64,000 nucleotides of DNA from Folioceros fuciformis (Eukaryota). The stretch spans positions 165,778 through 229,777 of the forward strand of contig JBNGIO010006342.1 of NCBI GenBank assembly GCA_049999805.1, read 5' to 3'. Below, piece by piece: positions 28,225 through 54,901 of this stretch. Position numbers and translations under genes: made by a program. The notes beneath the pieces are model-generated. The model did no database searches. It worked only from the letters and a program-made list of their open reading frames with translations, and had not been told where the DNA came from. Positions within the stretch are counted from its first letter, which is position 1, and every line of letters starts with the position of its first letter.

Positions 28225-28515
28225 CATGATGCACATTAGTCTGCCAAGTGGCTTATGGTTGTGGAACTGGGGTTAGAGATACCTCATTATGGAATGTTGG
28301 ACGCGTGGATGTTCCTGCATGGAAAGCCACCGCACTCGCGAACTTATCCTTCGCACCGTGTGTAATTTTTTACTGACGCCAAACACATACTAGCAACCCA
28401 GGAGGGCGAGTATCCTGACGTCAGGCAATTTCGCAGCAGTGGCTGTGAAATTGGTGCTCGGTCTGAGACTCGTCGAATCTCTCGGACGGGGAAAACATTG
28501 CCAGTTGGCGTCAAG

Positions 28516-32364: not shown

Positions 32365-32999
32365 CACATTATTTTCACTCCAGATGCCCTGGCTTGTGGC
32401 GACCTTGTGCGCAGCTCACGCGTACTTTCTTTTGGGACATGCAAGTGTAAAGACTGGCGTGATGTGATATATATATTACTCAGACTCAGCTTAGCGGTTA
32501 AGTTTTTCACCTCGCCACAGCCTGGTTGTCTTCACCATGGTGCTGTATGCCTGCCACCTTTCATTATCCTGCAGACGGAAGACTCGCCATTCAAATCCTT
32601 GGAAGGTCATGGTGTTGACGGAACTACAAGGAATTCTCCTGAAGCAGAAAATCCTCCGGCACGGACGGGATAGGATGAGGTTAAGGCCTCCATACTTGAT
32701 GGGTCAACTTTAGAGATGCAACGTGACGCTTTCATCGCTTGCCACCACTTGTGCTGAAGTGAATTTATCAACAGTGAAATGTAACTATCCTCTTGTCAAT
32801 AGCCTCCGTTATTGGTTCTAATAAGATCATAACTGCCTCGATCGTTCGAAACTCGCTCTCCTTCGGCCCCGGAAGAAAAGCATTTTCCTGTCAAACCGAT
32901 TCCGTGTCACTTTTGGAGATGGTCCTTGCTGTACTTTTCGTCTCCGTTGAACCTCTCGACGTGTTCACTCGGACTGAGCATTATGGATTCAATGGAGTT

Positions 33000-34330
33000 A
33001 AGGTGCGGGATGCGTAATGGCGATTTGCTTATAGAATGTCATATCCATACATGCCTCGCACATCGATTAGGGCACCTCTTCAACTCCACCATGCTATGGC
33101 GGGCACCTCTTCAACTCCATCATGCAGCGGCTATGGCGGGCACCTCTTCAACTCCATCATGCAGCGGCTATGGCGGGCACCTCTTCAACTCCACCATGCA
33201 GTTGCTATGGCGGGCACCTCTTCAACTCCACCATGCAGTTGCTATGGCGGGCACCTCTTCAACTCCACCATGCAGTTGCTATGGCGCTCCATCGGCTTGC
33301 TAGGGGGTTGCTATGGCGCTCCATCGGCTTGCTAGGGGGTTGCTATGGCGCTCCATCGGCTTGCTAGGGGGTTGCTATGGTGCTCCATCGGCTTGCTAGG
33401 GGGTTGCCACCTCATATTGTTGCAAATATGTATGGCGTAGGACGATGGAGCTTGCTAGGGGGTTGCCACCTCATATTGTTGCAAATATGTATGGCGTAGG
33501 AGCTATGGCGTAGGAGCTTTGACTGTGGCTCAATACACCATTATGATTTCAGATTATGATTTTAAAGATATGTAGTTATGAGGAAAAGTTATGGCTCAAT
33601 ACACCATTATGATTTCAGAGATATGGAGTTATGAGGAAAAGTTATTTTCCAAATTGGTTCATTGGCCTACAGGGATGGAACTAGAGCTAACAACTTCAAA
33701 GTTCAAGCAACTCACAGGTCTACCCAATATGGTTGGAGCTCAAGCAACTCACATCTCTACCCAATATGGTTGGAGCTTAAGCAACTCACACGTCTACCCA
33801 ATATGGTTGGAGCTATAGATGGTTCTCACATCAAGCTGACTACACAACCTAATCAGATAGATAACCCAGTTGCATATTAGTGTCGTCATGGTATTCACTT
33901 TGTTGTACTACAAGGCGTATGTGATGCTAACAAAAAATTCATCGATGTATGTTGCACTTATCTTGGTGGAGTTCATGATGCTACAATTCTTAGGGAGAGT
34001 AGCATATGGGAGAAGATGAAGACAGGTGTTATTTTAAGAGACCATATTCTACATATCGAGGATATTGAAATGACTCCATATATCTTAGGTGATAGTGCCT
34101 GCCCATTAATGCCTTTCCTCATGAAGATCGGACTAAAAAATATTTCAATCAGTCCTTAGAAGGGGTAGAGTGAAAGTGGAGAATGCTTTTGCCTTGTTGA
34201 AAAATAAGTGTCGTATTCTAAAGAATCTTAATGTGTGTTTGAAGTATGCTCCATAGGTCGTCATCGCTTGTTCCGCACTTCATAATTTTTGTATACAGGT
34301 TGGAGAGTTAGAAGCACGACAATATGATGA
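33000..34330 (+). mobile_element. Degenerate PIF/Harbinger transposase (DDE_Tnp_4) with internal tandem duplications
   Basis: VAMALHRLARG..VANMYGVG; LPNMVGAIDGSHI; VVLQGVCDANKKFIDV; GGVHDATILRES; YILGDSA; VKVENAFALLKNKCRIL. Confidence 0.85.
33070..33410 (+). repeat. Two abutting tandem arrays: ~6 x 37 bp, then 4 x 32 bp
   Basis: Unit gggcacctcttcaactccaccatgcagttgctatggc (33070-33285). Unit gctccatcggcttgctagggggttgctatggc (33286-33410). Confidence 0.95.
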
Positions 34331-34868
34331 AGACCCATTTCCACTACATGAAACTGAGTGTAATCATACTTGGGAAGCTCTTGCAAAGCGTCGGATGCAC
34401 AACATAGTAGTGATAGAACAAAATAAATTGTTTGAGTATTGGAAAAACAAAGGAACTGGTGATGTTTGAGGTTTAGTAGTAGCAAAGTTGTTTGTGGCAT
34501 ACAAACATGTTTGGAAACTTCGATATATGACTGCTTCAATTTCTATGGAAATTTATTTATTTGAAATTGCTATGAAAATTGTTCCATGAAGCTGAAACAA
34601 CCAAATATGAGAGCACACATAAAATAGATGTACCTACAAGCTACTGCCAGATGCACACATCCTTGACATGGAACGTACCACCAAATTCCACTACCTACCA
34701 ACTAACTTTCCACACCACAAGCACACGTGGAGAACATGCTATATGTTTGAGTGGGAAGAACTATATGTGCTTATGTCTCCTTGTCAAAGCACACTTTCAT
34801 CAGGCCATTGAAACCAAACATGCTACTTTCCTGAAGGGAATCTTCTTGCCAAGATAGTAGCAGCCTTC

Positions 34869-35830
34869 CTACCCTACATGGAGCCTCTTGCCTTCTTGGT
34901 AGGTAAGCAACTTGCCTGCCTTCTTTGATGGGCAAGCAACCTTGCATGGAGCCAACCTGCCTTGTCTGGAGTCTTGTTCACCTGTTGCCCTTCTCCCTTC
35001 CAAGTCTGTCACAAGTCCTAGGAGTTCATTTGTCATCGACATCCTACCTTTCTTGCCACTTCTACTATGTTCACCAAGGCCTCCTTCAGGTAACCCTGCA
35101 AGCATCGCTGTAATTTTCAGTTGGTCTTGCATTTGCAATTCATTTTGGCTGAGCTCATGCTGCAACATCAGTTGTTGCATGTGAAGTTGGTTTGCCATTT
35201 TGGCTGCTTCAATCTTTGCCAGACAATTAGCGAAAGATGATAAGCATTGCAATTTCCTTTCCCACTCCTGAAATAGAAGACCTTCTACACTTGACCTTTT
35301 ACATTGTACATGATCACTCATATTGTCTTGTTCTATAGTTCTTAGCTTACTTGGGGATTATGCATAGTGCTCCTCTATTGTCTCTTCAGCTTCGGAAGTG
35401 ACGTGATAGGGTGCATGTGGTGATTGTTCCAAATCAAATGAGTAAGTTCTACTCTTTGCAGCATCGGAAGGTGAGTTGGCAGTACCTTGTGACATCTTTG
35501 ACTTGCCAGGATCTAAGGCACCTGGAATCCCTTGGAATTTGGGGCTTTTGTCACAAAGGTCTGCCATCACATGGAAGTGAGGCCACGAGGAATTGATGCT
35601 TCCTATTGCTGTTTTTTGCTCCTTCTCCTTTCGGTACCGCTTCTTGAGATTTTCCATTTTCATCTTACACTTTTTTGCAGTCACACCAAGAAGGCCACAG
35701 TTGTTGCTAACTTCAGCAGCCACCTCACTCCAGTGTCTTGTAGTGAGATTACCTTGCTTGAGGTGCACCTAGTGCATCTCATGATAGGCCTCTATCAGAA
35801 CAGTTGTCGTGAAATTGTCAGCGTGCGTCC
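34869..35830 (-). pseudogene. Myb/SANT-like (trihelix, Myb_DNA-bind_4) partner gene of the Harbinger element
   Basis: VLIEAYHE..QGNLTTRHWSEVAAEV..TAKKCKMKMENLKKRYRKEK..SSWPHFHVM, followed by a Gln/Leu coiled coil. Convergent with the transposase, the usual two-gene Harbinger layout. Confidence 0.8.
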
Positions 35831-36086
35831 TGTTCCTATAACTGGTGCACTGATCAGCAGCTCACACACCTTCTATCTGCCTACACACCAAGACTGAGCA
35901 TTCAGCTCACCTTCCTAGCATCCTCAGATGTTGCCCACTGGCTGGCAGTGTCCTCATAGCGTCCTCACAAAAGCAGTGATAATGAAGAAAAATGGATTTA
36001 TCCTAATTCCCCCCCCCAGCTGGGTGCTAGGGAGACCACAACTGCATGAGTTGCGTTCAATGAGCTTACGTGAAGCAACTTACCCT

Positions 36087-36441
36087 TCAGGTAGAAGAGT
36101 GTCCCCACTCTACTTGTCCATTGCATCGAGGGCAGAACCACACATTGTCAGGCACTTCAGTCAGCGGCGGCTGTAAGCAGAATAGATGAAACCCACCATT
36201 ACAGTGATCACACAGCAACATTAGTTCTGGATCATCGATCCTTTGACAAATCTAACAAGGGTAGTCTATTGGGGAAACCCAGTTTGCTGTTATGATCGTT
36301 GGATCCAAGGTGGGCAAGTGATAGGGGGTGCAATTCTTCATGTGATCTATAATTGTGTGCCCGTCTGCCCCCTCCAAGACCAACACGCCGTTGCTTTGGA
36401 CTTCCTTCACTCGTAAAACGTGCCTACCGGTGCTTGGCTCC
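36087..36441 (-). pseudogene. Integrase C-terminus plus PHD finger of the gypsy element
   Basis: EPSTGRHVLRVKEV..LEGADG..DYPC*ICQRIDDPELMLLCDHCNGGFHLFCLQPPLTEVPDNVWFCPRC (C4-H-C3, 36123-36257). In frame with the integrase once copia-2 is removed. Confidence 0.9.
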
Positions 36442-36718
36442 TGTAGGATCACTAGAGAAGCATGGTGGAGGAGAGGAGAAGAGGAGGCAGAGAGGAGAGG
36501 AGAAAAAGAGGTCACATTGAGAGTGTTTGGCAAGGGAGCTCAAGGGGGTATTTATACCCTCTAGAAGAGCTCCCTAAGAAGCTTCACAAGAAGCTCACTG
36601 GAAGCTGCGCAAGAAGCTTCCTACAGATTAGCTTAAGCTAATCTAAACTAATGATACTTAACTAGACACTAATCTTAGACTAAACACATTAGCCTAAGCA
36701 CATTGGGCTTTAATAACC

Positions 36719-39700
36719 CTACAACCTCCCACTTAAAGGCCAATTTACCTGCATAAGAGAGTGGTCTAGCTCATGCCCATGAGTGTCCGAGCTTGTGCGA
36801 ATTGCTCCGTAGAGAGCCCCTTGGTAAGAACATCTGCAGGGTTCTGAGGTGTGAACTTTGACAAGCTGTACCCTCTTGTCTTCCAACACCTCTCGAATGA
36901 AGTGATACTTCACTTCCACATGTTTGGTCTTTGCATGAAACACTGGATTCTTCGCCAACTGGATAGCACTCTGGCTATCACAATGCAACACTGGCAGCTC
37001 ACCCTTGATCCCCAAATCTCCCACTAAACGAGCAAGCCACATGGCTTCCTTGCAAGCCTCAGTCGCTGCAACATACTCGGCCTCTGTGGTAGATAGCGTT
37101 ATGCACGATTGCAAACGAGATCGCCATGAGACTGCCCCTCCAGTGCACATGAAGACATAACCTGATGTGGACCTCCTTTTGTCCATATCCCCTGCATAAT
37201 CAGCATCCGTATATCCTACTACAGATTCATCTCCACTACCAAAACATAAGCACAAAGCTTTTGTACCATTCAAATACCTCATAACTCCTTTCACTGCCTC
37301 CCAATGCTTCCTGCCAGGGTTTGACATGAACCTACTAACCACTCCCACTGCAAAAGCAATGTCAGGACGTGTAGCAATCATTGCATACATCAAACTCCCT
37401 ACAGCTGATGAGTATGGAACCTTCTCCATTTCAGCTTTATCCTCCGCAGAACTTGGGCAATCTTTGCTCGAAAGTTTCACATATGGAGGCAACGGAGTAC
37501 TTAAGACCTTCCCCTTCTCCATATTGAAACCTTGAAGCACCTTGTTAATGTATTCTGTCTGAGACAAGTACATCAAACGCTTCTGTCTGTCTCGACGAAT
37601 ACGCATGCCAAGAATATGGCTTGCCTCCCCCAAGTCTGTCATGTCAAAGCGACCATTCAACTTTGACTGCAACGCTGAAATCTCATCACTGTTAGTCCTA
37701 GCAATTAGCATATCATCCACATAGAGGAGTAGAATGAGCAAGCTTCCATCCTTAGCTTGCTTCGTATAGAGGCAATGATCCATATCGCTACGCTTGTAGC
37801 CTTGAGAAAGCATAAATGAGTGGAACTTGAAATACCACTCCCTGGGTGCCTGCTTCAAACCATAAAGGCTCTTCTTTAACTTGCACACCAGACTCTCTTT
37901 GCCCTTCTCAATGAAACCCTCTGGTTGCTACATGTATACCTCTTCCTGGAGATCACCATGCAGAAATGCCAACTTCACATCCATCTGGACAAGTTCCATG
38001 TCGTTCCTCGCAACCAGACCAAGAACACATCTCAAGGTAGTCATTTTGACAACTGGTGAAAAAATCTCATCAAAGTCAATACCTTGCTGTTGCTTAAAAC
38101 CTTTAGCAACCAATCGTGCCTTGTACTTAGGTTTGCCATAATGGGGTATGTCCTTCATCTTATACACCCATTTGCATGGCAACGCCTTCTTGCCCTTAGG
38201 CAACCGAACCAACTCCCAAGTTTGGTTCTTATGGAGCGAATCCATCTGCGACTGCATCGCCTTCTCCCACTTGTTTTTGTCAATCACTGACTTGGCCTCT
38301 TGGTAACAAGAGGGCTCCCCACAATCCGTCAGCATGACATAATCAAGAGATGCAACATTCCTGTCAGGAGGACGTGAGATCCTTCCTGACCTACGAAGCA
38401 CTGGCGCCTCGACCGGAGCTGGTTGCACTCTCTCCTCGTCTACAAGTGGAGGAACTTGTTCCTGCACATCACGATGTTCAGCCTGCGCGGGACGGTCAAG
38501 TCCATCTTCTTGGAAGACCACCCGTCGCACCTCCATAGTTGGAGTAGGCTTCTTGTGCATCTTGGTCTCATTGAAGAACACATCATTGCTGCGAACCATC
38601 CTCTTGGCTTCTGGATCCCATAGACGGTATCCCATCTCACCAGATTCACCATAGCCAAGAAAAATACATTTTCTTGACTTAGGAGCCAACTTGTCGCGAA
38701 ACTCCTTCGGAACATGGTAGTATGCCTCGCAGCCAAACACTCGTAGATGTTTGTATGACGGCTTCTTTCCATACCACATCTCCTCTGGAACCTGTTCATC
38801 CACAGCCCTATTAGGAGATCTGTTAATAAGATGCACTGACGTAACCACCGCTTCTGCCCAAAATCCGTTAGGCAATCCAGAGTTTGACAACAAACTACGC
38901 ATCCTCTCCTGGATGGTCCTGTTCATCCGCTCAGCCACACCATTCTGGGGAGGAGTATACGGTGCAGTCAATTCTCTCTTGATTCCCTTGGAATCACAGA
39001 ATGACTGGAAAGCCTTCGAAACATACTCTCCCCCATTGTCTGTCCTTAGACACTTCAGCCGGAGGCCAAACTGATTCTCCACAAGGGTGACGAATTTCTG
39101 AAACACTGTCAGAACATCATCCTTTTTCCTCAAAGGATAAACCCACACCTTGCGTGAGAAGTCATCAATGAAAGTGACAAAATAAGATGCACCGCCTAAC
39201 GACACAGTGGGCATAGGTCCACAAATGTCACTGTGAACCAATTCAAGAGGTTTACTTTTGTGTTTACCTCTTGCTCCATGTGGTGACTTCGTCTATTTTC
39301 CATACAAACAGTGCTCACACACGGAGAAATCGGAGAAGTCAAGAGCAGGGACGTAACCAAAACGAGATAAGATCTTCATTCCTTTCTGAGACATATGTCC
39401 TAACTGACTATGCCACAAGGAAACACTTGGCACTTCCGCTACATGATCCTTGACAGTGGTTACCTGAAGTGAGTACAAAGTGCCACACTTCGATCCACGA
39501 GCTATCACAAGAGAACCTTTGGAGATCTTCCAAGAACGATCTCCAAACCAACAGTGGTAGCCAGCGTCATCCAACTGCCCTGCGCTAATCATGCTTTTGG
39601 TCAACTTCGGAACATGCCTGACATCCTTTAGTGTGAATGAAGATCCGTTGTCGAACTTCAGCTGCACATCACCAACGCCTGCTATCTCGCACGCGTAGTT

Positions 39701-40702
39701 ATTTCCAAGCCGAACACATCCTTTCCTAGTAGCATCATAAGTGCTAAACCACTCCCTATGCGGAGTAACATGGAAAGATGCTCCAGAGTCAATTATCCAA
39801 TTAGAGAATAAGTGACTCTCCATGGCTGTCAGTTGTGCAGAACCAAAAGAAGAAGAGATAAGAACATCTTCATCGTCAACAGAGTTCACCTCATCACACT
39901 CGATACTGGAATCTGCCTTGTTGTCGCTCTGCTTCTTCTCCTTGCCTTTTTCCTTCATGAACTTCTCGCAGTCCCTTCTGATATGACCCTTCTTGTGACA
40001 ATGGTAACACTCAACATTGTTACGACTACGAGATTTGCTACAGGAAGAACTTCGCTCCTTGTACTTCCCCTTTGAAGTGGACCCTCCTCTCACCATGAGG
40101 GCATTAGAACCTTTCGAAGGTTCCATATTCTTCCTGTTCACCTCCTCTGTTAACAGGCTACCTTCTACATTTACAACAGTAAGACCACTGGCAGGAACGG
40201 AATTACTCAGAGCCGTACGGAAGGTGTCCCAACTCTCTGGTAATGTGACCAACAAAAACATAGCTCTCACGGAATCTGGGAACGAGATACCTTGAGATGA
40301 GAGCTGGCTGAAATTGGTATTGAACTCATTCAGATGATCGGACATCCTCGTCCCTTCCTTCATCTTTAAGTCCACCAGCTGTTTCAACCAATACACCTGA
40401 GAAGCCGCACTTTGCTTCTCATACAAGTCACACAGCTTCTGCCATAGCTCGAAACTTGTGGTCTTGTCTTTCACGTTGAAGTAGACCGACTTCGACACTG
40501 TTAGCATGATGGTAGACCTAGCAAGCTCATCTAGATCTTGCCACTCATCCTGAGTCATGCTAACAGGTTTCACTCCTAGCAGCTTGATGGGCTTGATCTG
40601 CTTCTTCTGTACTAGAACATTATACACTTGTTCTTTCCAGAACGGGAAGTTAGTACCATCTAACTTCTCGATATTGAACATGACGTTTTCTGAGGACGTC
40701 AT
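36719..40702 (-). pseudogene. copia-2 gag-pol, nearly intact (two in-frame stops and a terminal frameshift)
   Basis: [95 protein letters not shown]. Confidence 0.95.
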
Positions 40703-40989
40703 GCTTCAAATTCGATCCAAATCAACCAAAAGGCTAGTTTGAAATTGGTCGAAATGAAATGTAGATTCTACAGGTTACCCTCACAACTTCTTCCGAATCG
40801 TATGTCCACGACTTGGGCCTCTGTCGCTCATAACAGGAATGTCCTTCTACGTTTGATCGAGATCCTGACTTCCTCAGCCGGGGTCAATACGGCACCCACA
40901 CTCTCGCTCCCGGCGTCTGCGATTTGTTCACTTTCCGGCGCTCGTCAATCGGGTCCTCGCTTCACTGGCACGCTCGTTTCGAGCGTCAC

Positions 40990-41340
40990 GGGCGCCCACG
41001 TGGTGCCCGGTGGCGCCTAGGTGGCGTCCACGTGGCGCCCAAGTGGTGCCCAAGTGCGCCTGCGTGGCGTCCTGATGGCACCCAGTGGCGCCCACGTGGT
41101 GCCCAAGTCGCGCCTAGGTGGCGCCCGTGTGGTGCCCAAGTCGCGCCTGGGTGGCACCAAGGTGGCGTCCAAGTGGCGCCTAGGTGGCGCCGATGTGGCG
41201 CCCGCGTGGTGCCCAAGCGGCGCTGATGTAGCGCCCGCTGGCGTCCACATGGCGTTGATGTGGCGCCCGGTGGCGCCCAAGTGGCTCTCACATAGCGCCT
41301 AGGTGGCGCCTGCATGGCGCCCCTGCCCCTCCTAGATGGC
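40990..41340. repeat. GC-rich degenerate array of ~11-bp GGTGGCGCC-type units in the copia-2 5' leader
   Basis: Repeated (g)gtggcgcc/gtggtgcc/gtggcgtc units between the PBS and the gag ATG. Confidence 0.8.
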
Positions 41341-41663
41341 CATCTTCATGGTCTTGCTCCACAACGTGCTCTGATACCACTTGTAGGATCACTAGAGGAG
41401 CATGGTGGAGGAGAGGAGAAGAGGAGGCAGAGAGGAGAGGAGAAAAAGAGGTCACATTGAGAGTGTTTGGCAAGGGAGCTCAAGGGGATATTTATACCCT
41501 CTAGAAGAGCTCCCTAGGAAGCTTCACAAGAAGCTCACAGGAAGCTGCGTAAGAAGCTTCCTACAGATTAGCTTAAGCTAATCTAAACTAATGATACTTA
41601 ACTAGACACTAATCTTAGACTAAACACATTAGCCTAAGCACATTGGGCTTTAATAACCCTACA

Positions 41664-42440
41664 GCTCCAGTGTATCCTGCGTTTGGCGCTGCAAATACAC
41701 ATAGTTGCCAAACTAGAATTTACGCACCTTAGGTCGGAAGCTGCCACTTCGTGTGTAAGCATATCTAAGATCTCACGGTGTTGCGTGATCTACAAGTTGG
41801 CCATGGCCATAGGCTCCTAGGACCCTTTTGAATAGTGTTGCCCGTTCTCCTATGGCCCTTGCCCACGTTGCTAGATTGTCCAGGTCCGGGACTTCCTGCA
41901 TCTGCTTCTTAATGGCTGCGGGAGGTACTGGTCCTATCCAAATAGCAAAAAGTAAGGCGAAAAGTTTGCCAAAGCTGCATGACGGCTCATCCGATATCCC
42001 ATGGCGATGTAGGGCAGCTGCATGTCCCACTCCGTCTTGGGCTTAGCGAGGCATAGTTTTTGCAGAGCTTGCTTGATGGTCTGGACCATTCTCTCCGTGA
42101 GTCCATCCGCTTGTGGGTGGTCCCGGCTGGTGCGCCTGTGATCTATCAAGGCAGCATCCAGCAAATCCTGGAATTCTCCTCTAAATTCCGCTCCTTGGTT
42201 CGTCAAACATTCGGCATTGCTTCCAAACCTGCTGAGTATGTTGTGTAGAAACGCCTGTGACGTACTACGGAATGTCTTGTCTGGGAGAGCTGCCAGTTCC
42301 AGCCACTTGGAGAAATGCTCCACCATCACCATGATGTACACATTTCCCCTGGGTGTTCAAGGAAACTCTCCTGCCAAGTCATACGACCACCGGAAGAACA
42401 AACCCATAATGGGCAGTGGATGCAACTATGAGTGTGGGTT
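41664..42440 (-). pseudogene. Gypsy integrase catalytic core
   Basis: LHPLPIMGLFFRWSYDLAGEFP*TPRGNVYIMVMVEHFSKWLEL..CLTNQGAEFRGEF..HPQADGLTERMVQTIK..FSPYFLLFG. Confidence 0.92.
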
Positions 42441-42444
42441 GCTG

Positions 42445-43440
42445 GATGTAGGTTTGATAGTAGTTGCATAGCCCCAAAAACGCCCTGAGCGCTGACACAC
42501 CAGCAGGGACAGGGATCTGCTATATGGCCTGAACCTTCGCAGCATCTGGCATGATGCCATTTAGTAAGATCCTGTGTCCCAAGTAAGCCACTGTATCCAT
42601 GGCAAACTCACACTTGGCGGGATGACAAGTTAACGAAGCCTTTCGCAACCTCCTAAACAAGTCCTCCAGGTGTAGCAGGTGAGTCTCAAAATCAGTGCTG
42701 TGAACCAACACATCATCTATGTAACAAAGAAAATGTGGTGCCCCAGCCAGTACCTTGTCCATCACCCTCTGGAACATAACTGGCGCATTTTTAAACCCGA
42801 ATGGCATAACCAACCACTCCTATAATTGATGCGCTCNNNNNNNNNNNNNNNNNNNNNNNNNNNNNNNNNNNNNNNNNNNNNNNNNNNNNNNNNNNNNNNN
42901 NNNNNNNNNNNNNNNNNNNNNNNNNNNNNNNNNNNNAGGCAGTCTTATGTATGTCTTCTTCCGCCACTGGTACCTGATTGAATCCCTGCTGTAGATCCAG
43001 TGTGGAAAAGAAGATTGACTAACCTATCCGATTAAACATCTCTTCACAAGTAGGCATGGGATACCTGTCAGTGGTGGTCACAGCGGTCAAGGGCCGGTAG
43101 TCTCTGCACATACGCTTCGCCATCTAGAGCCCTTGACTGTCCTTCTTGGGTGGGAGCAACGTGGCAGCTGCAAAATCCAAGTTTGAAGGGCGGATAAGCC
43201 CTGCCTTGTATAGTTCCTGACAACGCGTCTCCACAATGTCCCACTCAGACTAGCTCAGCCGATATCTCCTTCTGAAAACCGGCTCTGGGGTATTCAGCTT
43301 GATCTTGAAGGTCATTAAATTACACCTCTTCAACTCTTGCATGCTGAATGCGAAGCAGTCAGCATACTGCAGGATCAACGCCTTCAATCGACGTCGTTGT
43401 CCTTCATCCAACTGAGGACCCATCGTCCAAATGAAATTCC
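42445..43440 (-). pseudogene. Gypsy reverse transcriptase (100-N gap at 42837-42936)
   Basis: PVFRRRYRLS..GLIRPS..KKD..RMCRDYRPL..DRYPMP..STLDLQQGFNQV..KTA|EWLVMPFGFKNAP..YIDDVLVHS..KCEF..YLGH..RAFLGLCNYY. Confidence 0.93.
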
Positions 43441-43649
43441 CTGCATTAAAGGTGGCTTAGGTGGGCCTCCAGCATCCGGGCCAGGATCCCGCTTGGAAGC
43501 AGCAAGTGCAGACCTGACAAGTGCGTGCTCCCCCCCCCCCCTGCTTCCAGCAGATAGGAGTAGTAGTTGAAACCTGGGAACGGAAGGTGCACAATATCTG
43601 GGTGACACATATGAGCCACCAAACCTCCCTTGTGACGGGCAAAGGCTTG

Positions 43650-44610
43650 GAAAGCCAAACACAAATTGACCAACTACGTAAGGGCATAAACATCCATGGC
43701 CCGTCCGAGTGCAGCGAATTGCTGCATGCGGGACGCCTTGGGTGCGGCCGTGGATTGCTGTGGAAAACCCATGATGCGCTCACACTCCTTGACTGTAGGT
43801 TCTTCCCACTGGTTGGTGTCGGAGTTCAGTAGCAACCCTGTCCCTTAAGCGCTGTAAGCATAGCTACCCGGGTAAGTCACCAAGGTAGGGAGGGTGCGTC
43901 GTGGCTCACCAGGCTTGTTGGTGGGAAACCATGGTGCACGCTCTGTAGCTTTAATACGCCGCGGTAAGTGATTGGTGTTGAGCACTGTTGCGAGGTCCAA
44001 AGTAGCATCACGCTGCTGCTGACTCAATGCCATGTGAAGCATAGACACAGGGCATAGATTGGTCTAGTAATTCCGTAGTCAGTGAGCAAAGCTGCCCACT
44101 TGTACTGCGTCCATAGTAAAGGCTGGACCAACAACATGTTGTATCAAAGCCATATCCTATTGAAGCTGGGTTCTGGGATCCAGATGAGCGGGAGTGTTCT
44201 CTAACATGTATGCCATTGATGGATTGACCTCCTGTGACCATGCCAGGATTTGTGCTAAGGCTCGGAAGAGTCCTGATCTAGGATCTGAGAGTCCTGCTCC
44301 ACGACCTGCCCGTGAGAGACCCTAACACTCCTTGCCAGCAACGATAAGATCTATAGGTCCCAAGTGCTGCACATGGCTATGTTGAACATAGGTGAGGTTC
44401 TGTGGCAGAGCCTGAAACATGCTTTGACAAGCATGTAAACTAAGTTGCTCTGGGTACATGTCATGTAACATACGTACCCGATGCTCCGCCATATGCCTGA
44501 CTGTCGGGCAGATGTCACAGTAAATGTATCACTGCACCTATAGCCCACATCGCAGTGCCACTTCAAGTCCTGTGCAAAGTCCTCCAAAGAGCTCCATGAG
44601 TGTAATACCC
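43650..44610 (-). pseudogene. DNMT3-like C5 cytosine DNA methyltransferase domain inside the gypsy pol
   Basis: One reading frame with 8 stops. I: ITLMELFGGLCTGL. II: YIYCDIC. IV: GPIDLIVAGKEC*GLS (Cys codon 44325-44327). V: GLSDPRSGLF. VI: YMLENT (44193-44201). VIII: DAVQVGSFAH*LRNY*TNL. IX: ECERIMGFP. X: ALGRAMDV. Confidence 0.88.
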
Positions 44611-47600
44611 GCTGTGGGTGGGGTATTACAAGATACAATCGCAGTGTTGATAGTTGACATACACGGTGGTGGTATCCTGGTCAATAGGGCCTTGCCCATA
44701 AATGACTCCTGCAAGGTTTTCATGACATGAGCCATCTACTCCTGTGCCTGTTGCACAGCTCTTTGTCTCGATACCCCTGTCTGAGTGACATCAACCGTAA
44801 GAATGGAACTGTGAACGGAGTTATCGTGATAAACTTCAACCTCCTACAAATGTTGCTGTAGTAGGAACTCTTCCAGACTGTCACATTCCTGCAACCATTC
44901 ATCTCCTTTGTCGTCAAGGGCTAGTTCTAGCTCCTGCGTAGGTTTCTAATCCACCAGAGCAGCCATACATGCCTGTGTTTCCACAATGGACACCTCTGTA
45001 GCCTGCATAACTCCATGCAGATCAAGAGGGATGTGGGCAATGCGTTGGCCACTCTAACGCCAGTCTGGGCGATAAGTAGCTTGCTCTACCCAATTGTCAA
45101 TCGGGACACCAGGTGGGAACAGAAACTCTTGCCCCAGCAAGATGTCGTAGTTAGTTGCCGTGGTCACTACACAACGCAATGGCAACATCATCTCATCATC
45201 AATGCCTGCCTTCAAGGTAATTCGCACATGTTGCACTGTTTCCCCGCACACAGGCTCCACAGCACCGAAGGCCATCTATATGTTCCACGGAGATGGCTTC
45301 AGGGCTTCTCCTGTCTGTCTCAACTTAGCTGCCAAGATCTTGCCCACGATCACTGGTTGACCTCCAGCATCAAGCAAGACAGCCCTGGAAGCCAAGTTGT
45401 TGACAAGTACGTGTTTGTTCCTGTTGTCCACCAAGACATTGCTGACTCTAGCGCGTGCACGGTTCGTGGGTTGCACAACAAGCAATCCCTGCACCTCTTG
45501 TGCCAACTGAGCAGCCTGTACCACCTCTCCTCGTGCCAGGACATCTACCCACGTATCGCAAGAACGCTCCAGCCCCCCCAGATTGCTGGTCATGGCTTCT
45601 GCGCACCCACTGGGTAGGCTAGGTTCCACAATCACTTGAGGGTCTTCAGACAACAACATGGCTTGGAGTTGAGCTTCGCTGTACCCAAGTTCAGCTAGAC
45701 TAAAGAGTGGTGTTGACGTCATCCGAGCCATAAGGTCCTTGCTCGTGAACTCGGGGACACCTGGGTGCAAATGACGCAACCTTGATGCGCCTCTCATTCC
45801 TGCAATTGGACACTTTTGCCTAGTTCCATCTTCCAACACATCCTCATCTGGCAAATGATCAGCGCCCCTCACCAGCATTGCTACTTCCGGTGGTAGCTGC
45901 TGGAAGGACTGAGGTATGACCGCTCTAGCTCCACGCAGATGTGTTGACACAATTGCGGGACTTGGTACCTGGCCTACCCATGATTGTGGTAAACTCATAG
46001 TCTTCGTCCCTCCTTGGTGCTGCCCTTCAACACCCATTTTTCCAGATGCACCACCTGATCTATCAGCAATGCATGCCTCCCAGGCCCAACCATAGTCCTC
46101 TCCGTTAGGATCCAAGGTTCCACCTGGTTCCAACTCCGCGGTATTGACAGGCTTTGTGACAGCTAAACTGGCAACAATGGCACTTACTTGGGTAGTGAGA
46201 GTGGCCATCACCGTCTCCAAAGCACTCATCTTATCTGCCTGAGCCGTTGACTTCAGCTTGACCTTGTCACATTGAGCTTTACTCTTGGTGATCGATGAAG
46301 TTCCCAACTCAGCAAATGTATCTGAGCTCCCTTCTCCTGAAGTAGTGGGCGTGCTGGTTGCAGTCCTTTACTGACGCTGCTCTGGATGCTTTTGAAAGCA
46401 CACTGCTACCACATGACCGGTCTTGTGACAATGTGAACATTGTAGAGACTCCACTGGACACCTACATGCCGATGCTAGGTGCTCTGCACTGGTGCACCTA
46501 TTGCACAACGGGCCCATTGTAGCTGCTGCAGTTGTGGTTGGCTTGGTCTTGCTGCTGTCCTCAGAGTTTCTCCCTGTGCCATGGCTTCCCCCAGTTCCAC
46601 TTGAGCTTGAACCTCCCTTGTTTGAGAACATACTCTGATAATGGTTGAAAGCCTTGGTATGTTGGGATGCATACGCCGAGAATGCCAACTCCTTCTTCTC
46701 TGCCTCTTGATAGACTTGATGCAAGGTATAGTTGTCTTTGTACTTGTTCACAAGGGTGGTGAATAACTGGTAATGGAACATCAGGTCTCTCTCCATCATT
46801 GCTAAGAACTTCTGAGCCGCCTCTTGGTCCGTTAGCATTCCTGTTCCGTCCCACAATTTCTGCAACCTTCTAAATGCCATCTGAACAGTTTCACCCTTCT
46901 TGCGCGCAAAGGCTGCAAGCTCAGCTATTTTCTTTAGCGTCTTGGTAGGGAAAGCCTTTTCCAGTATACTGAAGAAATCCATCTCTATTGGTGTCATGTT
47001 CACCACTGTAGGTGGTGGCACACTGGTGGCAATAGTGCCTGCAGCAATGCCTGTCTGGTGTGCCGATACTACTGCAAACAGCAGAGCATTGTAGGCCACT
47101 TGCAAAGCTGCTGTATACGCCGGGTTAGGTTTCTCCCTCATCGCTAGTATCTCTGGAGCATGAATTTCAAACAAGTCCAAGCCTCATCTGTTAAATACCC
47201 AGGCATCAATTCGAACATATACCGATGTGTATAAGCCGTGCCATGCTTGAACTTAGCTCGGCTGATGAGGTATCCATAGAACAGCCTAAAGTCACGCAAT
47301 GTCTGAGTTCCTAGCCTTCCCGAGAACTTCTTGGACTTGTGTACTGAGGAACTTGAACCCTCCATGATGATAGACTCCTCAGCTTCCTCTTTTGAGCTGG
47401 AAACTCCCCCTACAGCTTGAATTATGGTAGTCAAAGGTGACCAACCTACTCCTGCTCCGCTTGGAAATGTGACAGGATAACTACCCACTCCTTGGACTCA
47501 AGCTCCAGAGTTCTGATTCTCTGTCGGTTCAAGTTGACCTTCAACTGGTTCCTCCCTTGAAGCAGGACGTTCGCCTACCCGAGGTTGACGTACTCTTCTC

Positions 47601-49454
47601 CTAAAAGCCCAAGGTCTCCTGGGTACTATCCTGTTCCTTAAGCGGTAAACTCGCTCCTCATCATCCTCATCAGAGCGCATAACCCATGCAACAACAAGAA
47701 CAAGTGTCAGCAGCAAGTTGGCCAAAGACTGCCTCAAGATCACCTCACACTTACAGCGATGCTTCAACCCATTGGATCCTACGCCTGAACAGCTTGTCCA
47801 AGAGTGTACCCTAGACACACGTATTGTTTCAAGCACAAGTCTTCACATCATGATCAACGACACCTATCAGCTGTTTGTATCAACTGATGTTCCTATCCTG
47901 AGACCCTAGCAATCAGCCAAGGTGCAAACTCAGTTGTGAGAAGTAAATTCAATGAAAGTTGGAAGGGTCCCGCAGATGGCACACAACACACATGTCATGC
48001 GAGTCACCCTGAGTCACACTCAGCGATTGGGTAGTGCAAAAATATCAGCTGAAGTAAGTTATCCCCCTTTTGATCATCCCGACAAGCAGCCCCTCCAGCG
48101 GTCTCAAACACATTCGTGCATTGATTCTCAGAGTGAGACCCCGACACAGAACTTCCAGAAACTCGGTTCGCGCTGACATTAATTGTTCAGCTCCTAAGAG
48201 CACAACGGGTCGTGACACCGAATACTTGCATACAAGTTCCCATCATCCCCGTCAGGAGAACCCCTACGGCGCTAGCTTGCCAATCTACTCAACAGGAAAA
48301 GACTTCTCACAACTGAGGTTTCTCCTCGACTGCTCTGCACTTATCTGCTTCGTCGCCTAGGATAGGTTGATCTTGCTCTTTGTCAAAAAATTGCAACATT
48401 GTGTATATTTCCACCCCCTACATTATCAGAAAGGGAACTATCCTCATGGTCAGGAGTTTGAGCTACATGAGGAAATGGTTCAGATGATGAGTGTAGAGGT
48501 GTTTCATAGAGCTCATTCAACTCCTTGATGACAATGGGAGTTGCTCCCATTGCTTTGAGAGGATCTAATACTCCAGGAAAAAAAAAATCTCTATTGAAGA
48601 TGATTTTCTTGGTAGCAAGGTGATATAACCTATACCCCTTTACCTCATTGGAGTACCAAAGCATGATGCATTGGATGCCTTTAGGATCCCACTTGGTTTG
48701 GTTTTGCTTTGGAACATGAGCATTAACCATACAACCAAAAATCCTAAAATGACTTACATTAGGTTTGATACCAGACCACGCCTCCTCCGGAGTTATTCCA
48801 AGCATGTACCTAGTTGGAACTCTATTCAAAATGTAAGTTGTTGTAATAATGGCCTTTCCCCAAAAAGGTACTTTCAACTCACTTTGATAGAGCATGCATT
48901 TTGCCGCATTCACTAGGCTTCTTAGCTTGCGCTCTGCTACTCTATTTTGCTCTGACATGTGAGGAATTGTGAGTTTTCTTTGAATGCCACACTCCTTGCA
49001 AAGCTTTTGAATTGAGAAGAGATGTACTCCCCTCCATCGTCACTTCTCAAAGTTTTCAAGCATTCTCCACTCTCGTTTTCCACCAAGACTTCCTGTATCT
49101 TGAATGTGTTAAACACCTTGGATTTCTCCTTCAAGAGATACATCTAACTCTTCCTTGTGAAGTCATCCACCAAGACTAGAATGTAGCACGATCCACCATG
49201 GGTAGGATTCTTCATTAGTCCACATACATTAGCATGTACTAGCTCCAGCTTCATCGTTGCTTAACAAGCTCCGATCTTGGGGAACTTTGTTCGATGAAGC
49301 TTTCCCATTATGCACCCTTGGCATAATTGCACCTCTCCTTCCTCCTCCAATTCCAAGCCTTTCACCATTTGATAACTCTTCATCAACTTGATGTTGTGCA
49401 CTTTGGTGTGTCCCAAGTGTTGATGCCATAAATCAATTGACCTTGTGCTTTAAG

Positions 49455-49710
49455 GTGAGCTTGACACAATTGTGTAAGCTTCTTCAGCGAGCTTGATAGA
49501 ATTGTGTAAGCTTCTTTAGCGAGCTTGATAGAATTGTGTAAGCTTCTTCAGCGAGCTTGATAGCATTGTGTAAGCTTCTTCAGCGAGCTTGATAGCATTG
49601 TGTAAGCTTCTTCCGCGAGCTTGATAGAATTGTGTAAGGTTTCTCGACGAGCTTGATAGAATTGTGTAAGCTTCTTTGGCGAGCTTGATAAAATTATATA
49701 AGCTTCTTCA
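49455..49710. repeat. ~8 x 32-bp tandem array inside copia-3 pol
   Basis: Unit gcgagcttgatagaattgtgtaagcttcttca with minor variants. Confidence 0.9.
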
Positions 49711-50954
49711 TCCCATATAGAAGCACACAACTTGTAGAGATTGCCTTCCCGAACACCTCGAGTTATCACCTTGACAGAAGGTGCTTCAAGATGCTTGGGT
49801 GGGATGTGACATGCTTTTAAATTGAAGACAATCTCATTTCCTCGGTTAGTGATTCTTGTTACTGAAAGAAGATTTTTCACAAGACTAGGTACATGGTGTA
49901 CATCCTTAATAGTACCTTTGGATACTCCTCCAAGTAGCTTAACTTTATCACACCTTTCTCTTTGATCTTGTGTGACTTATTGTCACCAAGTGGCATTTTT
50001 TTGTAGTTTGAGATCCAGGGTTGGTTGTAGGTGAAGTGTTGAGATGCTCCAGGGTCTAGGTATAGACTCTCATCCTTCCCTGATGAGCGATCTCACACTT
50101 TCTTTATCATTGAAGCAGTAAAACGATATTCTTCTTGCTCATTCACTTGATTGGCTTGTGACTATTTTCCTTTCTTCAAGTCAGCCAATCTTGTCCTCCA
50201 GTCTTTTGCATAGTGGTTAGATTTCGTATAATAATGGCAAGTACCCATGTCTTTTTCTTTGTAACTTTCTCCTTTGATCCTTCACCGGAGTTGTCTCGTG
50301 GGGTCTTCCCTTGTGACTTTCCCTTCCTTGAAAAGAGTACCTAGTCACCATTGTGTTCATTCTTGATTGAAATCTCGAGCTCCTCTTGTAGAAACAACCG
50401 AACCTCCTCTTCCATCATTGCTTGTTTATCGCTTGGACGCATCGATGCAGGTGTCCTAAAAGCCAACACAAACTACTTGTACATAGATGGTAAGCTACTC
50501 AACAACACCTCAATAGTCCTTCCTTCGAAAGGTTTAATGTCTGCATTCTTAATTTGATCAACCAAGTTCTTCAACTTGTTCAAATGTTGTTGAATCGTGT
50601 CCCCTTCAACCATCTTGAAGTTGGGAAGTTGTTGCTCCAACAACATCTCACTCACCATACTTCTTTTTTCGTACATGTTGCAAGGGTGGGTCCATGCCTT
50701 CTTCGATGTTGGACACTCACTCAATTGAGAGAGTATGTCATTAGACATGTTGAGAAGGATTGTAGCTAATGCTTGTCCATCCTTATCAAGGTCTCCTTAG
50801 ATGGGTGTGTCTTTAAGGCCCTTGTCAACGAATTTCCATACTCCTCTTTCGATGAGAAGCATCTTCATGTTCAACTTTCTTTCACAATGTGAAGTTCTTG
50901 CCTCCAAATTTCTCCACCAAGCATGTCTTAAGAAGATGTGTCTCCATGCTTGTT

Positions 50955-51056
50955 AACACCATCTATTGTATCCTCTCGTTAACGCCATCTATTGTATCCT
51001 CTCGTTAACGCCATCTATTGTATCCTCTCGTTAACGTCATCTATTGTATCCTCTCA
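50955..51056. repeat. ~4 x 24-27-bp tandem repeat in the copia-3 leader
   Basis: Unit gttaacgccatctattgtatcctctc. Confidence 0.85.
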
Positions 51057-51556
51057 CTTCATTATCAAACACTTAAAGGATTGCTACCAATGCCTTTAGT
51101 AACTATGCAATAAGACTTAACACAAGCACCCAACTATGAGAAGTCTACAAGGCACTATGAGAAGTCTACAAGGCACTAGAACATGGCTCTGATACCATGT
51201 GAGAAATATATGGATCTTACTTTTATTGAGAGGAATTACTTAACAATACACTAGAGGGTGAAAGTCATGTGAGAGCTATAACAGCTCAAACACTGACTCA
51301 TATCTCATCACCGCTCATGACCCCTTATATACTCATTACCATGTTACTATTCTAGAAACTATCTATTCTATAGTAACAATCTTGATTAGACTATAAGCAA
51401 AGTTCTTCTACCACTCTCTTATATGGCATATATATATTTAGCTGTTAATTTAAAATAACTACTCTTTTGATGTGTTGTCCTAAACCGCTCACTTACATAG
51501 GACCGTGATGAGAAGCCTTCGGATGTTCAAGCTGCACGCTCCGAGTTTAAAAAAAA

Positions 51557-53500
51557 ATGGCAGTGTGGACTACGTACAAGGGTAGGCCTGCCCGGAAGTC
51601 TTCCACAAGGGTGTCGATGGAGTGTCCGACATCGATCGGGACCTCGTTGCCTGCAACAATCCCACCATCCTCTTAGATCTGTATTTATGGACGGTAAGCT
51701 CAAGGCATGTGAATTTGATTGGATGACGCAGGAAACAATTTAGCCGAAAGATTGGCCCTACGAGGGGATCGGCTCCAATCTCGTCACTTATTTCACAGAC
51801 GTTTTAGGACAAACCTAGCACTGCTTCTCAGAACGTGAAAAACGAGGCGGGATGTGTCTTCTTCTCTTCGTTTCTGGAAGCCTTCCTTTCCGATGGATAT
51901 CTGGGCCTATGCAAGGCACCCATTGTGTTATCCACAATGCACCTCACTATAAGCGTGCTTACACTTGCAGAGCGCCAACTTCAGATCACGATACTTGTTT
52001 CTTTCCTGCTCAGTTTAGAACATTGCTTTAACTTTGTCAGCTCATCAGGCCTCGTCACCTTTTCTTCCATGGATGTCGGGCAACGACCCCAGGGCCTTGA
52101 TATGTTGCTCTCCTCTGCAACAATGGATGCTCTGAAGCCCACTGCCTTGCTATGGACGTCGACGCCACCTCCGCAAACTGCACCACAAAGACCACGGGAT
52201 GGAGGTTGACGAATTTCTTCCTCTCCATCGACGTTCTAGGCATCAGGGAAGGAGCCTTGAAGACGTTGCCGGACAGACTTCGGCGCAGAACGGTTTGCGA
52301 GGAGGACGACAAGAAGCAACACACAGGCATTCCTACTTCAATCTGTACTTCGCTATGGTTGCGGTGGGAACGTTGATCGCGGTGACCGTAGTGGTTTACA
52401 TGGAAACCAACGTAGGCTGGGCATGGGGATTCGCCATCCCCACAGCTTCATTTGCTCTTGCGTTCTGTGTCTTCCTGATAGGAAACCCTTGTACAGGCAG
52501 CAGCCCCTGGCCGGTGATTCCTGCACCGAGGTTGCTCAAGTCCTCGTTGCTTCTGTGAGAAAATGGCGGGTCAGGGTACCGGCGGACAAGAACCTGCTCT
52601 CCGAGGTGCCTGGTAGGAAGTTTTTCACTCCACAGAGACGGCACCTGCTGCACACGGATTCCTTCACGTATGTGCCATGTCTCTACTGTGGAACGCAGAT
52701 CGATGCAACTGCCAGCAATGTTTGCTTCAAATAAGGGCATGCTCATGTGCAACTGGAATGACCCTGAATGCAGATTCCTGGACACGGCAGCAGCCATCCG
52801 CAGGGAGGAGGATAAAAGCAGCCCCTGGAAGCTGTGCACCGTGACACAAGTTCAGGAAGTGAAGATGCTGATGAATACACTCCCTGTTTGGCTGCTCAGT
52901 CTCGTGCTCGTGACATCCTATTCTCAAATCCACACGCCCTTCATCAGGCAGGGCAACACAATGGCCAACAAGCTGGGCCCGCACTTCCGCATTCCTCCAT
53001 CATCCTCCAGATCTTCGCCCACGGAACTGTGGTGGTTGGGCTCATTATCTGCGACAAATGCTTCGTGCCTCTGGGCAGGAGATACACTGGTAATCCCAGG
53101 GGAATCTCGGTCCTCCAGCGCCTTCGAGTGTGCTTCTTCCTGTCTTCTGTGGCCATGATAGTTGCAGCACACACAGAGAGGCATAGGCTGGAGTACGTGA
53201 GAGACCATGAGATGGCGAACGTGCCCAACGCCAAGCTGCCTCTCAGCAGCGTCCGGCTTGTTCCTCAGTACGTACTGGCGGGTCTTTCAGATGTCTTCAG
53301 AACTTTCTCAGGAGCGCTTTCATCAGCATTACATCCGCAATTGCTGGTCGACATCGGCCTTGGGTTGGACAGAACGTGAACACCTCCCGACTGCACAAGT
53401 TCTTTGGGCTGTTGGCTGTTCTTGGGATTATAGACCTCATCGTCTTCATGTCCGTTGCACCGAGATTTCTGTATAGAAAGACAGAGGACAGGACACCCCC
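51557..53500 (+). pseudogene. NPF (NRT1/PTR) transporter pseudogene with multiple frameshifts
   Basis: YKGRPARKS; AERLA..SNLVTYFTDVL; AFLSDGYLG; SYFNLYFAMVAVGTLIAVTVVVYMETNVGWAWGFAIP; RFLDTAA..WKLCTVTQVQEVK; RQGNTM..GPHFRIPP; GISVLQR; LVPQY. Confidence 0.85.
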
Positions 53501-54901
53501 GGCTGAAATATTAGAATAGCTGGAAGCCGGAGGTGTTAGAATCACCGTAGCTTGGATACTTAGCGCAGTGCATCCAGATTTTGATGCGGTGGTCAACATC
53601 ACATCTCCTGGTGAGATGTTCTCGTACAAATCCGGTCACAGGAAAAAAAGGTTTTGCAGGTCGTTGGATGAACTTCCAAGAAAAAGGTTTATGGCTTTCC
53701 TCCGTCGTGGACTTTTTATGTCTTCGTTGAGCCATTGTTTTGGAAGAAGTTATTTGGATACCAATGTATCATACTAAGTAGAAGATTAAAATTCACATAG
53801 AAAGTAAATATCATAGTAAATATTTGAGAAGACCACACTCAGAGGTACCTATCGCTCTCAACATGTCCGTGATCGGAGTTGCCAAGGGGCTAACTTTTCG
53901 AAGGTGCCGATAAAGCCACCAATCCTATGTTGGTTATTGCCATCTTGTAAATTTGTTTGGCTGGCACTCTTTGCATAGCAATGGAGATGCATTCTCAAGA
54001 GAGAAAGCATGGGCAAGGCTGTTAAGAGATGAAGACATGATAGTGCTACATGAGAGCTTTAAACCATGCCCTTGTACAAGTGATTTATATATAATTCCAG
54101 AGCCCTTTTAATCCATCGATGTGAATAGACCTTCAAGGGGTGCAATGCCGTTTGAGTTATTAGTCCATTCGTTTTGGCACGAGAGATTCGCTCATCTCAT
54201 ACGGTTTGCTCGCAATTGTTTTTCTGATTTCTCTCATTCCCTGTCGCCTGGATGTTGGTCTCCACCATGTACCCTCATTTTGCCGCTTGGAGTCCTCCCT
54301 AGCTTGTTTGATGCGAGGGCACGATAGGCATGTCGAAATATTAACACGTGACTGGATACTGTGCCGTTGCAACATCTCTTTAGGCTGGTAGATTCGATAT
54401 AGACGCGTATGGGACTCTACATGTCAGTGCTCTGCCATTTTCACCTCTTGTTTTGAGTTCTGTGCGACTTGCTGCGATGTTTTAACATTCCCTGTTGTCC
54501 CTGCCAACCAAGCCTGCCAACATGTAATGTTGTTTCTTCGCCAGACTGGCTCAAGTGTTCCAACTTCCAAATTCAGAGACCTGCTTTCCAGGTAAGTGCG
54601 TTACCGGTCCTCACTACCAACCAGGCCAGCCAACGTGTAATGTTTTTTTCTTTCTCCAGACTGCCAAAAATTTATTCCGAGTTCCAGATTTCAGTCTTGT
54701 TTTCGTTGAGCATGTGTAGATTTGAGAGTCTTCAAGCCTGCCCTTGTCTGGCAGAGCGAAGATACAGGGCAGCCTAGCCTCTTAACCGATTTCATGGACT
54801 TCGCCGCTATCTATTTGTCCCTTTTGCTTTTAAAGAATGACGCACCATTCTCAACATGCTCTGAAGATGTGCAGCCGCCCGGGCATCTCGGCCCACAAGC
54901 T

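Follow-up and report, generated by a model that had tools for sequence, protein, structure and literature searches.

A DNMT3-like methyltransferase domain with a Glu-Cys motif IV, very probably a module of a decayed Ty3/gypsy-type retrotransposon in Folioceros fuciformis

We analysed a 64,000-nucleotide stretch of the Folioceros fuciformis genome (contig JBNGIO010006342.1 of assembly GCA_049999805.1, positions 165,778 to 229,777), referred to here as the window. Its minus strand carries a DNMT3-like C5 cytosine methyltransferase domain at 43641-44624, identified by Pfam (PF00145), translation, tblastn, sequence and profile matches in the PDB, and an AlphaFold model compared using Foldseek. Around this domain lie the remains of gag, protease, reverse transcriptase (RT), integrase and PHD finger regions, which very probably belong to a single Ty3/gypsy-type long terminal repeat (LTR) retrotransposon with the methyltransferase in its pol.

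The minus strand was read in the frame with codon starts at 44801, and 400 codons were translated. With stops written as asterisks, motif I reads ELFGGLCTG (44594-44568), motif IV GKEC*GLS (44336-44313), motif VI ENT (44201-44193), motif VIII AH*LRNY*TN (44087-44058), motif IX ECERIMGFP (43787-43761) and motif X ALGRAMDV (43712-43689), an order that is linear and not permuted. Within motif IV, Glu is encoded at 44330-44328 and Cys at 44327-44325, followed by a stop at 44324-44322; the canonical Pro-Cys is absent from this copy, the Cys being kept and preceded by Glu. The domain contains eight in-frame stops (44540-38, 44531-29, 44324-22, 44159-57, 44081-79, 44066-64, 43847-45 and 43676-74), and a ninth lies upstream of it at 44738-36. 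Six of the nine are TAG, two are TGA and one is TAA.

After masking of the stops, the window translation matched PF00145 with 30.1 bits, above the cut-off of 22 (E 4.4e-7). Three relatives each aligned by tblastn as one segment (44624-43641, 44606-43626 and 44609-43647; E 7e-44 to 1e-48). Because these single segments cover 44624-43626, the domain has neither a frameshift nor an intron. A phmmer search of 1.84 billion representative proteins gave 1400 matches at E<=1e-3, 558 at E<=1e-10 and 191 at E<=1e-30; the strongest reached 1.7e-65. The likeness to C5 methyltransferases is far beyond chance. A preliminary description of this DNA had claimed a complete C5 methyltransferase domain behind eight stop codons in 43650-44610, in linear motif order with no frameshift and no introns, and with Glu-Cys replacing Pro-Cys while the Cys and the motif VI Glu were retained. 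All of this was borne out by the Pfam score, the stops and motifs counted in translation (GKEC and ENT among them) and the single tblastn segments.

The nearest solved structures by sequence were DNMT3A (7e-7), DNMT3C (2e-6) and DNMT3B (5e-5), with M.HhaI next (3e-3). A profile built from 50 family members gave 53 matches in the PDB, headed by DNMT3A (3e-25) and by DNMT3B and DNMT3C (1e-22). Chains 4onj and 4onq, titled only 'DNA methyltransferase' and presumably from a tobacco DRM, followed at 3e-15, then Arabidopsis DRM2 (8e-12), M.HhaI (8e-10) and DNMT2 (5e-4); DNMT1 was not among the 53. An AlphaFold2 model of the stop-masked domain, made with the family alignment, was confident, with a mean predicted local distance difference test (pLDDT) score of 90.5 and a predicted template modelling (pTM) score of 0.85. 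Foldseek compared this model with the PDB and returned 194 matches at E<=1e-3, of which the best 32 were all DNMT3A, DNMT3B or DNMT3C (best E 1.9e-14, template modelling score on the target 0.80). Sequence, profile and predicted fold thus support a placement nearest DNMT3A/3B/3C. The preliminary description had favoured a DNMT3-type enzyme over a DRM and had named the methyltransferase fold as a check; the sequence, the family profile, the Foldseek result and the linear order all agree with its assignment, and the model has the fold of the DNMT3 enzymes.

Plant DRM enzymes are circularly permuted, with motifs VI-X before I-V. In the profile alignment to the DRM chains, the part holding motifs I to VI fell on C-terminal residues, about 225-351. 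The non-permuted order I, IV, VI, VIII, IX, X speaks against a plant DRM identity. These six motifs align with those of the mammalian DNMT3A, DNMT3B and DNMT3C, which differ from the window domain in several respects: identity is 18-21%, the mammalian enzymes have Ser-Pro-Cys-Asn where the element family has Trp-Glu-Cys-Gln, and the window domain sits inside a transposon pol without PWWP or ADD. Pfam found neither of these two domains on the minus strand of 41600-48400, where the flanks of the methyltransferase are protease and RT.

A bacterial or phage-type C5 methyltransferase gained by horizontal transfer, and not derived from DNMT3, would also have a linear motif order, which is common to prokaryotic enzymes. 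The language-model look-alikes of the relative P0003 were phage methylase clusters, but these show only a generic C5 methylase labelled viral and are uninformative. A metagenome scan with the motif IV pattern gave mostly weak, short matches (at least 60 loci, all weak, the best at E 6e-10 with ~30% identity over part of the domain); its loci were chosen by a Pro/Glu-Cys-Gln pattern that bacterial and phage enzymes fit too, and they were left unused. Such an origin is very unlikely, given that the family profile ranks DNMT3A above 4onj/4onq and these above M.HhaI, that DNMT3 enzymes fill the top of the Foldseek ranking, and that motifs VIII and X match DNMT3A residue for residue. In addition, a published tree groups the element-borne enzymes of Klebsormidium with Dnmt3 (PMC5890265, as far as the text available to us shows).

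Pfam searches of the three minus-strand frames and tblastn with five polyproteins gave the order gag, protease, DNMT, RT, integrase, PHD finger, with all parts on the minus strand. The gag-like region (46377-47330) has two CCHC zinc knuckles and lies in the same frame as the protease and the methyltransferase domain. Residues 138-336 of the Closterium polyprotein P0045 matched 46976-46377 by tblastn (E 1.4e-6); P0045 has a zf-CCHC at 296-309, and CX2CX4HX4C strings are present in the window translation. The aspartic protease-like region (45033-45437) was located by tblastn with relatives: residues 787-910 of P0097 aligned to 45437-45060 (E 2.4e-7) and residues 482-599 of P0045 to 45380-45033 (E 4.6e-12). 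The matched stretches are annotated Asp_protease_2 or gag-asp_proteas in those relatives, and the window's own decayed translation gave no direct Pfam match to a protease. From gag to the end of the methyltransferase translation (47330 to 43602), a single frame runs for 1243 codons with 18 stops and no frameshift.

The RT (42427-43441; Pfam PF00078 and tblastn) lies in frames that differ from that of the methyltransferase, with 71.7 bits in one and 18 bits in another, and at least one frameshift separates the two domains between 43641 and 43441. Its tblastn segments (43441-42938 and 42819-42427) are interrupted by a run of N at 42837-42936. A deletion junction follows at 42424-42428, where residue 1622 of P0097 aligns at 42427 and residue 1958 at 42425. 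The window element lacks about 335 residues that the relatives have at this point, namely RNase H and the zinc-binding domain of the integrase, and Pfam found neither RT_RNaseH nor Integrase_H2C2 in the three minus frames, although the relatives have both. Since the integrase match of P0162 extends to 42548 in a different frame, the position of the junction is approximate. The integrase core (rve) and the pol following it (41664-42425; PF00665 and tblastn) run to the insertion site of a younger copia element described below. PF00665 scored 32.2 bits, slightly below its cut-off of 32.6; tblastn over 42425-41919 gave 46-51% identity (E 1e-43 to 1e-47), and the match to P0164 extends to 41662. 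Beyond the copia insertion, the C-terminus of the gypsy pol was found at 36114-36419 (tblastn with P0181 residues 1416-1517, E 1.4e-18). It includes a PHD finger at ~36257-36123 with one stop inside (PF00628, 47.2 bits with the cut-off at 24, E 2.3e-12), and the relatives P0181 and P0008 likewise end in a PHD finger. Chromoviruses, which are gypsy elements with a chromodomain after the integrase, resemble this arrangement in having a chromatin-reader domain at the pol C-terminus; in the window element, by contrast, the reader is a PHD finger and is paired with a DNA methyltransferase.

A DNMT3-type sequence and fold without introns might be expected of a decayed host DNMT3 gene or processed pseudogene lying merely beside transposon debris. 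This is highly improbable here, given the frame shared with gag and protease throughout 1243 codons, the RT, integrase and PHD finger downstream, and the same order within one open reading frame (ORF) of intact relatives. The missing PWWP and ADD domains and the presence of several diverged copies in the same organism also argue against it.

These copies were found among the contigs of two DNA runs of one sample (X1 and X2), which were aligned to the window at 80% likeness and yielded 53 and 59 contig pieces, respectively. In the first run, 17 pieces were at least 99% identical to the window, 4 and 15 fell into the intermediate classes and 17 were below 90%, a spread which indicates that the family is multi-copy and diverged. 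Contigs of higher depth from the same organism have Trp-Glu-Cys-Gln where the window has Lys-Glu-Cys-stop, and a sense codon at the window stop 43847-45. The window copy itself is dead and makes no protein: there are nine stops in 400 codons (eight of them in the domain), frameshifts in the RT, a lost RNase H and an inserted copia element. The ratio of observed to expected CpG is 0.46 in the gypsy element and 0.61 in the window, and that of TpG plus CpA is 1.41 and 1.24, respectively. Contigs of run X1 differ from the window at 241 transition and 68 transversion places, and at four of the nine window stops the commonest residue of the relatives is Gln, Arg or Trp. The CpG depletion, the TpG/CpA excess, the transition bias and the changes from Gln, Arg or Trp to stop suggest that this copy was probably eroded by deamination of methylated cytosines.

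Two further observations concern the sister contigs. One sister copy lacks 1021 bases (joint 43916/44938), nearly all of the methyltransferase domain, and is represented by one 381-nucleotide contig in each of X1 and X2. Contigs of a third run, X3, on 43764-44390 depart from the window in strand-consistent runs made up entirely of C>T or entirely of G>A, which are absent from X1 and X2. Such a pattern may be that expected of a bisulfite- or enzyme-converted library, which, if so, could report on methylation of the element.

The residue before the catalytic Cys was compared in 153 relatives, made up of the best 150 of the 1400 phmmer matches and three further proteins from a word-index search. 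Glu was found in 90, Pro in 47, Ser in 7, Asp in 4 and Cys in 1, and 4 had a gap. The nearest relative, P0003 (45-47% identity), has Glu, as do all five Closterium proteins that were checked; the relatives from Klebsormidium nitens and Scenedesmus (KAF8056149.1) have Pro. Glu-Cys is thus the commonest motif IV state among the relatives in hand and not a lesion of the window copy. The preliminary description had allowed that Glu-Cys may be a family variant, which these counts bear out, and it had singled out the catalytic residues as a check on the ancestral enzyme; the relatives keep the Cys together with the Glu of motif VI and the Arg of motif VIII. In the Glu-Cys group, the Cys and the motif VI Glu are each present in 90 of 90 proteins, both motif VIII Arg in 86 of 86, the motif VIII Trp in 85 of 86 and the motif X Gly in 75 of 75, a conservation equal to that of the Pro group. 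Across the relatives, the first Arg of the motif VIII Arg-x-Arg is conserved in 147 of 148 and the second in 145 of 147; in the window the first has become a stop and the second is kept. At the third position of motif VI, where the window has Glu-Asn-Thr, Thr is the commonest residue (63 relatives) and Val is found in 58. ORFs of at least 1000 residues, up to 3456, contain 47 of the 90 Glu-Cys proteins.

That the Glu-Cys of the window is just one more decay mutation might be proposed for so heavily mutated a copy, in which Lys stands next to the Glu, at a position occupied by Trp in 118 of 149 relatives. The Glu in 90 of 153 relatives, including P0003 and the five Closterium proteins, makes this hardly credible. 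The same-organism contigs point the same way, with no difference at the Glu codon among 40 of the 398 rows of contig differences, an absence that is weak evidence. A tree of 141 rows, from which 13 segments shorter than 250 residues had been dropped, has high-support branches that force at least ten motif IV changes. An approximately unbiased (AU) test on 49 rows with the motif IV column removed rejected a single Glu-Cys clade (difference in log-likelihood 397, p 5e-89). By these analyses Glu-Cys arose or reverted many times, a repeated switching that is notable because Pro and Glu codons lie at least two bases apart.

Retrotransposon-borne enzymes of this kind are already in print. KnitGypsy-Dnmt3 of K. 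nitens was described as an intronless, non-rearranged Dnmt3 domain in a gypsy pol with Ka/Ks<0.2 (de Mendoza et al. 2018, PMC5890265), and 'streptophytes (Gypsy-DNMT3)' are treated as known in the accessible part of a 2026 preprint (10.64898/2026.05.21.726589). Because this pol-borne class had been published, the find is less novel than the preliminary description supposed. The window domain is 35.8% identical to the K. nitens protein GAQ93235.1 (P0065) over 330 residues (tblastn, E 3e-44). The two are alike in having an intronless, non-rearranged Dnmt3-like domain in a streptophyte gypsy pol (PMC5890265) and in the order CCHC-protease-DNMT seen in P0065. They differ in that the K. nitens protein, the only relative from that species seen here, has Pro-Cys and the window Glu-Cys, at ~36% identity, and in that the window copy is a relic; the window element also has a PHD finger at the pol C-terminus, a region in which the partial P0065 allows no comparison.

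Also comparable are the Closterium polyproteins (CAI7911866.1, GJP34393.1 and CAI7886383.1, and P0182), which are unnamed or hypothetical in NCBI and on which our literature search found no paper. These share the order gag, protease, DNMT, RT, RNase H, integrase, and have Glu-Cys-Gln-Gly without the loop insertion of the large clade, at 34-36% identity over the domain. In contrast to the window copy they have intact ORFs of up to 1928 residues, and P0182 has no PHD finger by Pfam. SymbioDIRS-Dnmt3 of Symbiodinium is likewise a Dnmt3-type domain in a retroelement pol, but the element is of the DIRS type with a tyrosine recombinase and represents an independent capture (PMC5890265). According to the available text of the same paper, two such domains methylated CG in yeast, and they are the only element-borne DNMT3 shown to methylate DNA.

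Apart from GAQ93235.1, the named relatives are several Closterium proteins and a 'pol' of the chlorophyte Scenedesmus; the rest are mostly metagenomic. The intact P0097 and P0182 share the window order CCHC, protease, DNMT, RT, RNase H, integrase. RT follows the methyltransferase, as in the window, in 5 relatives and precedes it in 50, where the methyltransferase lies between RNase H and integrase; 38 of these 50 also show an integrase after the methyltransferase. A further 29 relatives have only an integrase, after the methyltransferase, and 69 lack RT as well as integrase. The placement with RT first is seen with Glu-Cys and also with Pro-Cys. As a separate observation, the 1337-residue P0185 from an ENA metagenome combines, by precomputed Pfam, an RT with two methylases in a single ORF, one of C5 type and one a Dam-type adenine methylase (PF05869), which recalls the dual-methylase elements in the part of bioRxiv 10.64898/2026.05.21.726589 that was available.

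The conserved catalytic residues of the relatives make it plausible that the ancestral enzyme was active. In C5 methyltransferases the motif IV Cys is the nucleophile and attacks C6 of the flipped-out cytosine; the Glu of motif VI and the Arg-x-Arg of motif VIII hold this base. Backbone contacts and loop rigidity are the main contribution of the residue preceding the Cys, so Glu could replace Pro without abolishing catalysis. Intact relatives would then be catalytically competent, with Glu standing in for Pro. A natural example of a non-Pro residue at this position is Pmt1 of Schizosaccharomyces pombe, a Dnmt2-family enzyme with the C5 methyltransferase fold that reads PSCQ in place of PPCQ and is still active, as a tRNA 5-methylcytosine (m5C) methyltransferase (PMC3526270, from the accessible part); seven of our relatives have Ser-Cys. 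Pmt1 differs in being a tRNA methyltransferase of another family, in having Ser and not Glu, and in being a single-species case and not a recurrent one (PMC3526270).

Alternatively, the Glu-Cys domains may be catalytically dead or weak; they would then serve a structural or regulatory role, as DNMT3L and DRM3 do for active partners, or bind DNA or chromatin within the pol polyprotein. To our knowledge, almost all C5 methyltransferases have the Pro of Pro-Cys, which favours such a loss, and the inactive paralogues we know of have lost the Cys and other catalytic residues, which does not. The 90 Glu-Cys proteins match the 47 Pro proteins in how strongly they conserve the Cys, the Glu of motif VI, the two Arg of motif VIII and the glycines of motif I, and Pmt1 is active with Ser before its Cys (PMC3526270). 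The failure of KnitGypsy-Dnmt3 to methylate DNA in yeast, discussed below, counts in favour of an inactive module, which we regard as unlikely.

We are confident, short of certainty, that the domain belongs, as one of several modules, to the pol of a dead Ty3/gypsy-type LTR retrotransposon of the 'Gypsy-DNMT3' kind, that Glu-Cys is the state of its family, and that the enzyme would be competent in intact relatives. Several points weigh against this. No pair of terminal repeats was found for the gypsy element in the window by a repeat search, by self-blastn or by a sensitive blastn of 46500-58000 against 26000-36441; with no LTR pair bracketing the element its ends are undefined, and these may have been lost, have diverged too far or lie beyond the nested insertions. 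The query against which all 153 relatives were ranked has Glu-Cys, and the relatives cover none of the ~1250 weaker matches. The 49 rows of the AU test were chosen with the first tree already in view, but a clade in the full set stays a clade in any subset. Purifying selection on the domain, which the relatives suggest, was judged from residue conservation alone. In yeast, KnitGypsy-Dnmt3, the single streptophyte element enzyme assayed there, gave no detectable methylation, a result its authors called inconclusive (PMC5890265, in the part available).

It has been proposed that a retrotransposon-borne enzyme methylates, during retrotransposition, the complementary DNA (cDNA) of the element that carries it or the surroundings of that element (PMC5890265, within the available text). 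The pol-borne enzyme studied here would accordingly be placed to methylate the new cDNA of the element or the insertion site, and the PHD finger would probably aid chromatin choice or guided targeting. A bolder and doubtful proposal is that Glu-Cys is a working alternative to Pro-Cys which retrotransposon DNMT3s took up repeatedly, that the carboxylate might alter function, and that together with the PHD finger the enzyme might give the element its own writer-plus-reader kit. If this were true, the carboxylate might activate the thiol without a host cofactor, the substrate might shift to single-stranded cDNA or RNA:DNA hybrids in the particle, and the kit would set the methylation state of each new insertion.

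The gypsy pol is interrupted in its 3' part by a younger Ty1/copia element on the minus strand (36442-41663), defined by an LTR pair, a target duplication and ORFs. Its LTRs (36442-36723 and 41382-41663) are 98.2% identical over 282 nucleotides, its ends are TG...CA, and a 5-bp target duplication, GCTCC, is present at 36437-36441 and 41664-41668. The element is near-intact, with three ORFs of 389, 437 and 469 residues and single breaks between them. As it was inserted into the gypsy pol, it postdates the gypsy element. A GC-rich array of 11-nucleotide repeats (16 overlapping 66-nucleotide windows, mostly 11 nucleotides apart) occupies 40988-41335, between the 5' LTR of the copia and its gag. 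A second copia element on the plus strand (2298-5870) is split into four ORFs (gag, pre-integrase/rve, SH3-like and RVT_2), and a stretch after it (5813-6092) resembles the LTR of the nested copia at 86.5% identity. Directly upstream of the gypsy gag, 48400-50900 on the minus strand holds a third element, copia-like and decayed, with an in-frame 32-nucleotide repeat array at 49393-49774. Elsewhere in the window, 24001-26000 is very AT-rich (GC 0.25) around a gap of 400 N (24796-25195). The plus-strand ORF at 11610-12410 encodes the C-terminal part of an SPX domain (39.9 bits). This ORF is most like SPX proteins of land plants and Mesotaenium (35-43% identity) and is probably an exon of a host gene.

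The window copy is an ordinary relic of a known kind and has no functional consequence. What seems new is the size and spread of the family, together with the prevalence and recurrence of Glu-Cys among domains that keep the other catalytic residues. Our literature search found no description of the Glu-Cys variant; the main text of PMC5890265, as far as available, is silent on the proline and the motif, its supplementary figures 3 and 13a lying outside what was covered. The recurrent variant is a modestly novel and testable point: most of the close members swap Pro for Glu in the hallmark Pro-Cys with the other catalytic residues kept, and the activity and substrate of Glu-Cys pose a clean and cheap question for enzymologists. 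Gypsy-DNMT3 elements, of which the streptophyte kind is rarely mentioned in the literature searched, are found here in several diverged copies in a further streptophyte-like genome. Their family is far larger than published, with 1400 representative proteins at E<=1e-3 that include Closterium and the chlorophyte Scenedesmus and with two placements in pol. Retrotransposons that carry their own DNA methyltransferase reverse the usual picture in which the host silences the transposon.

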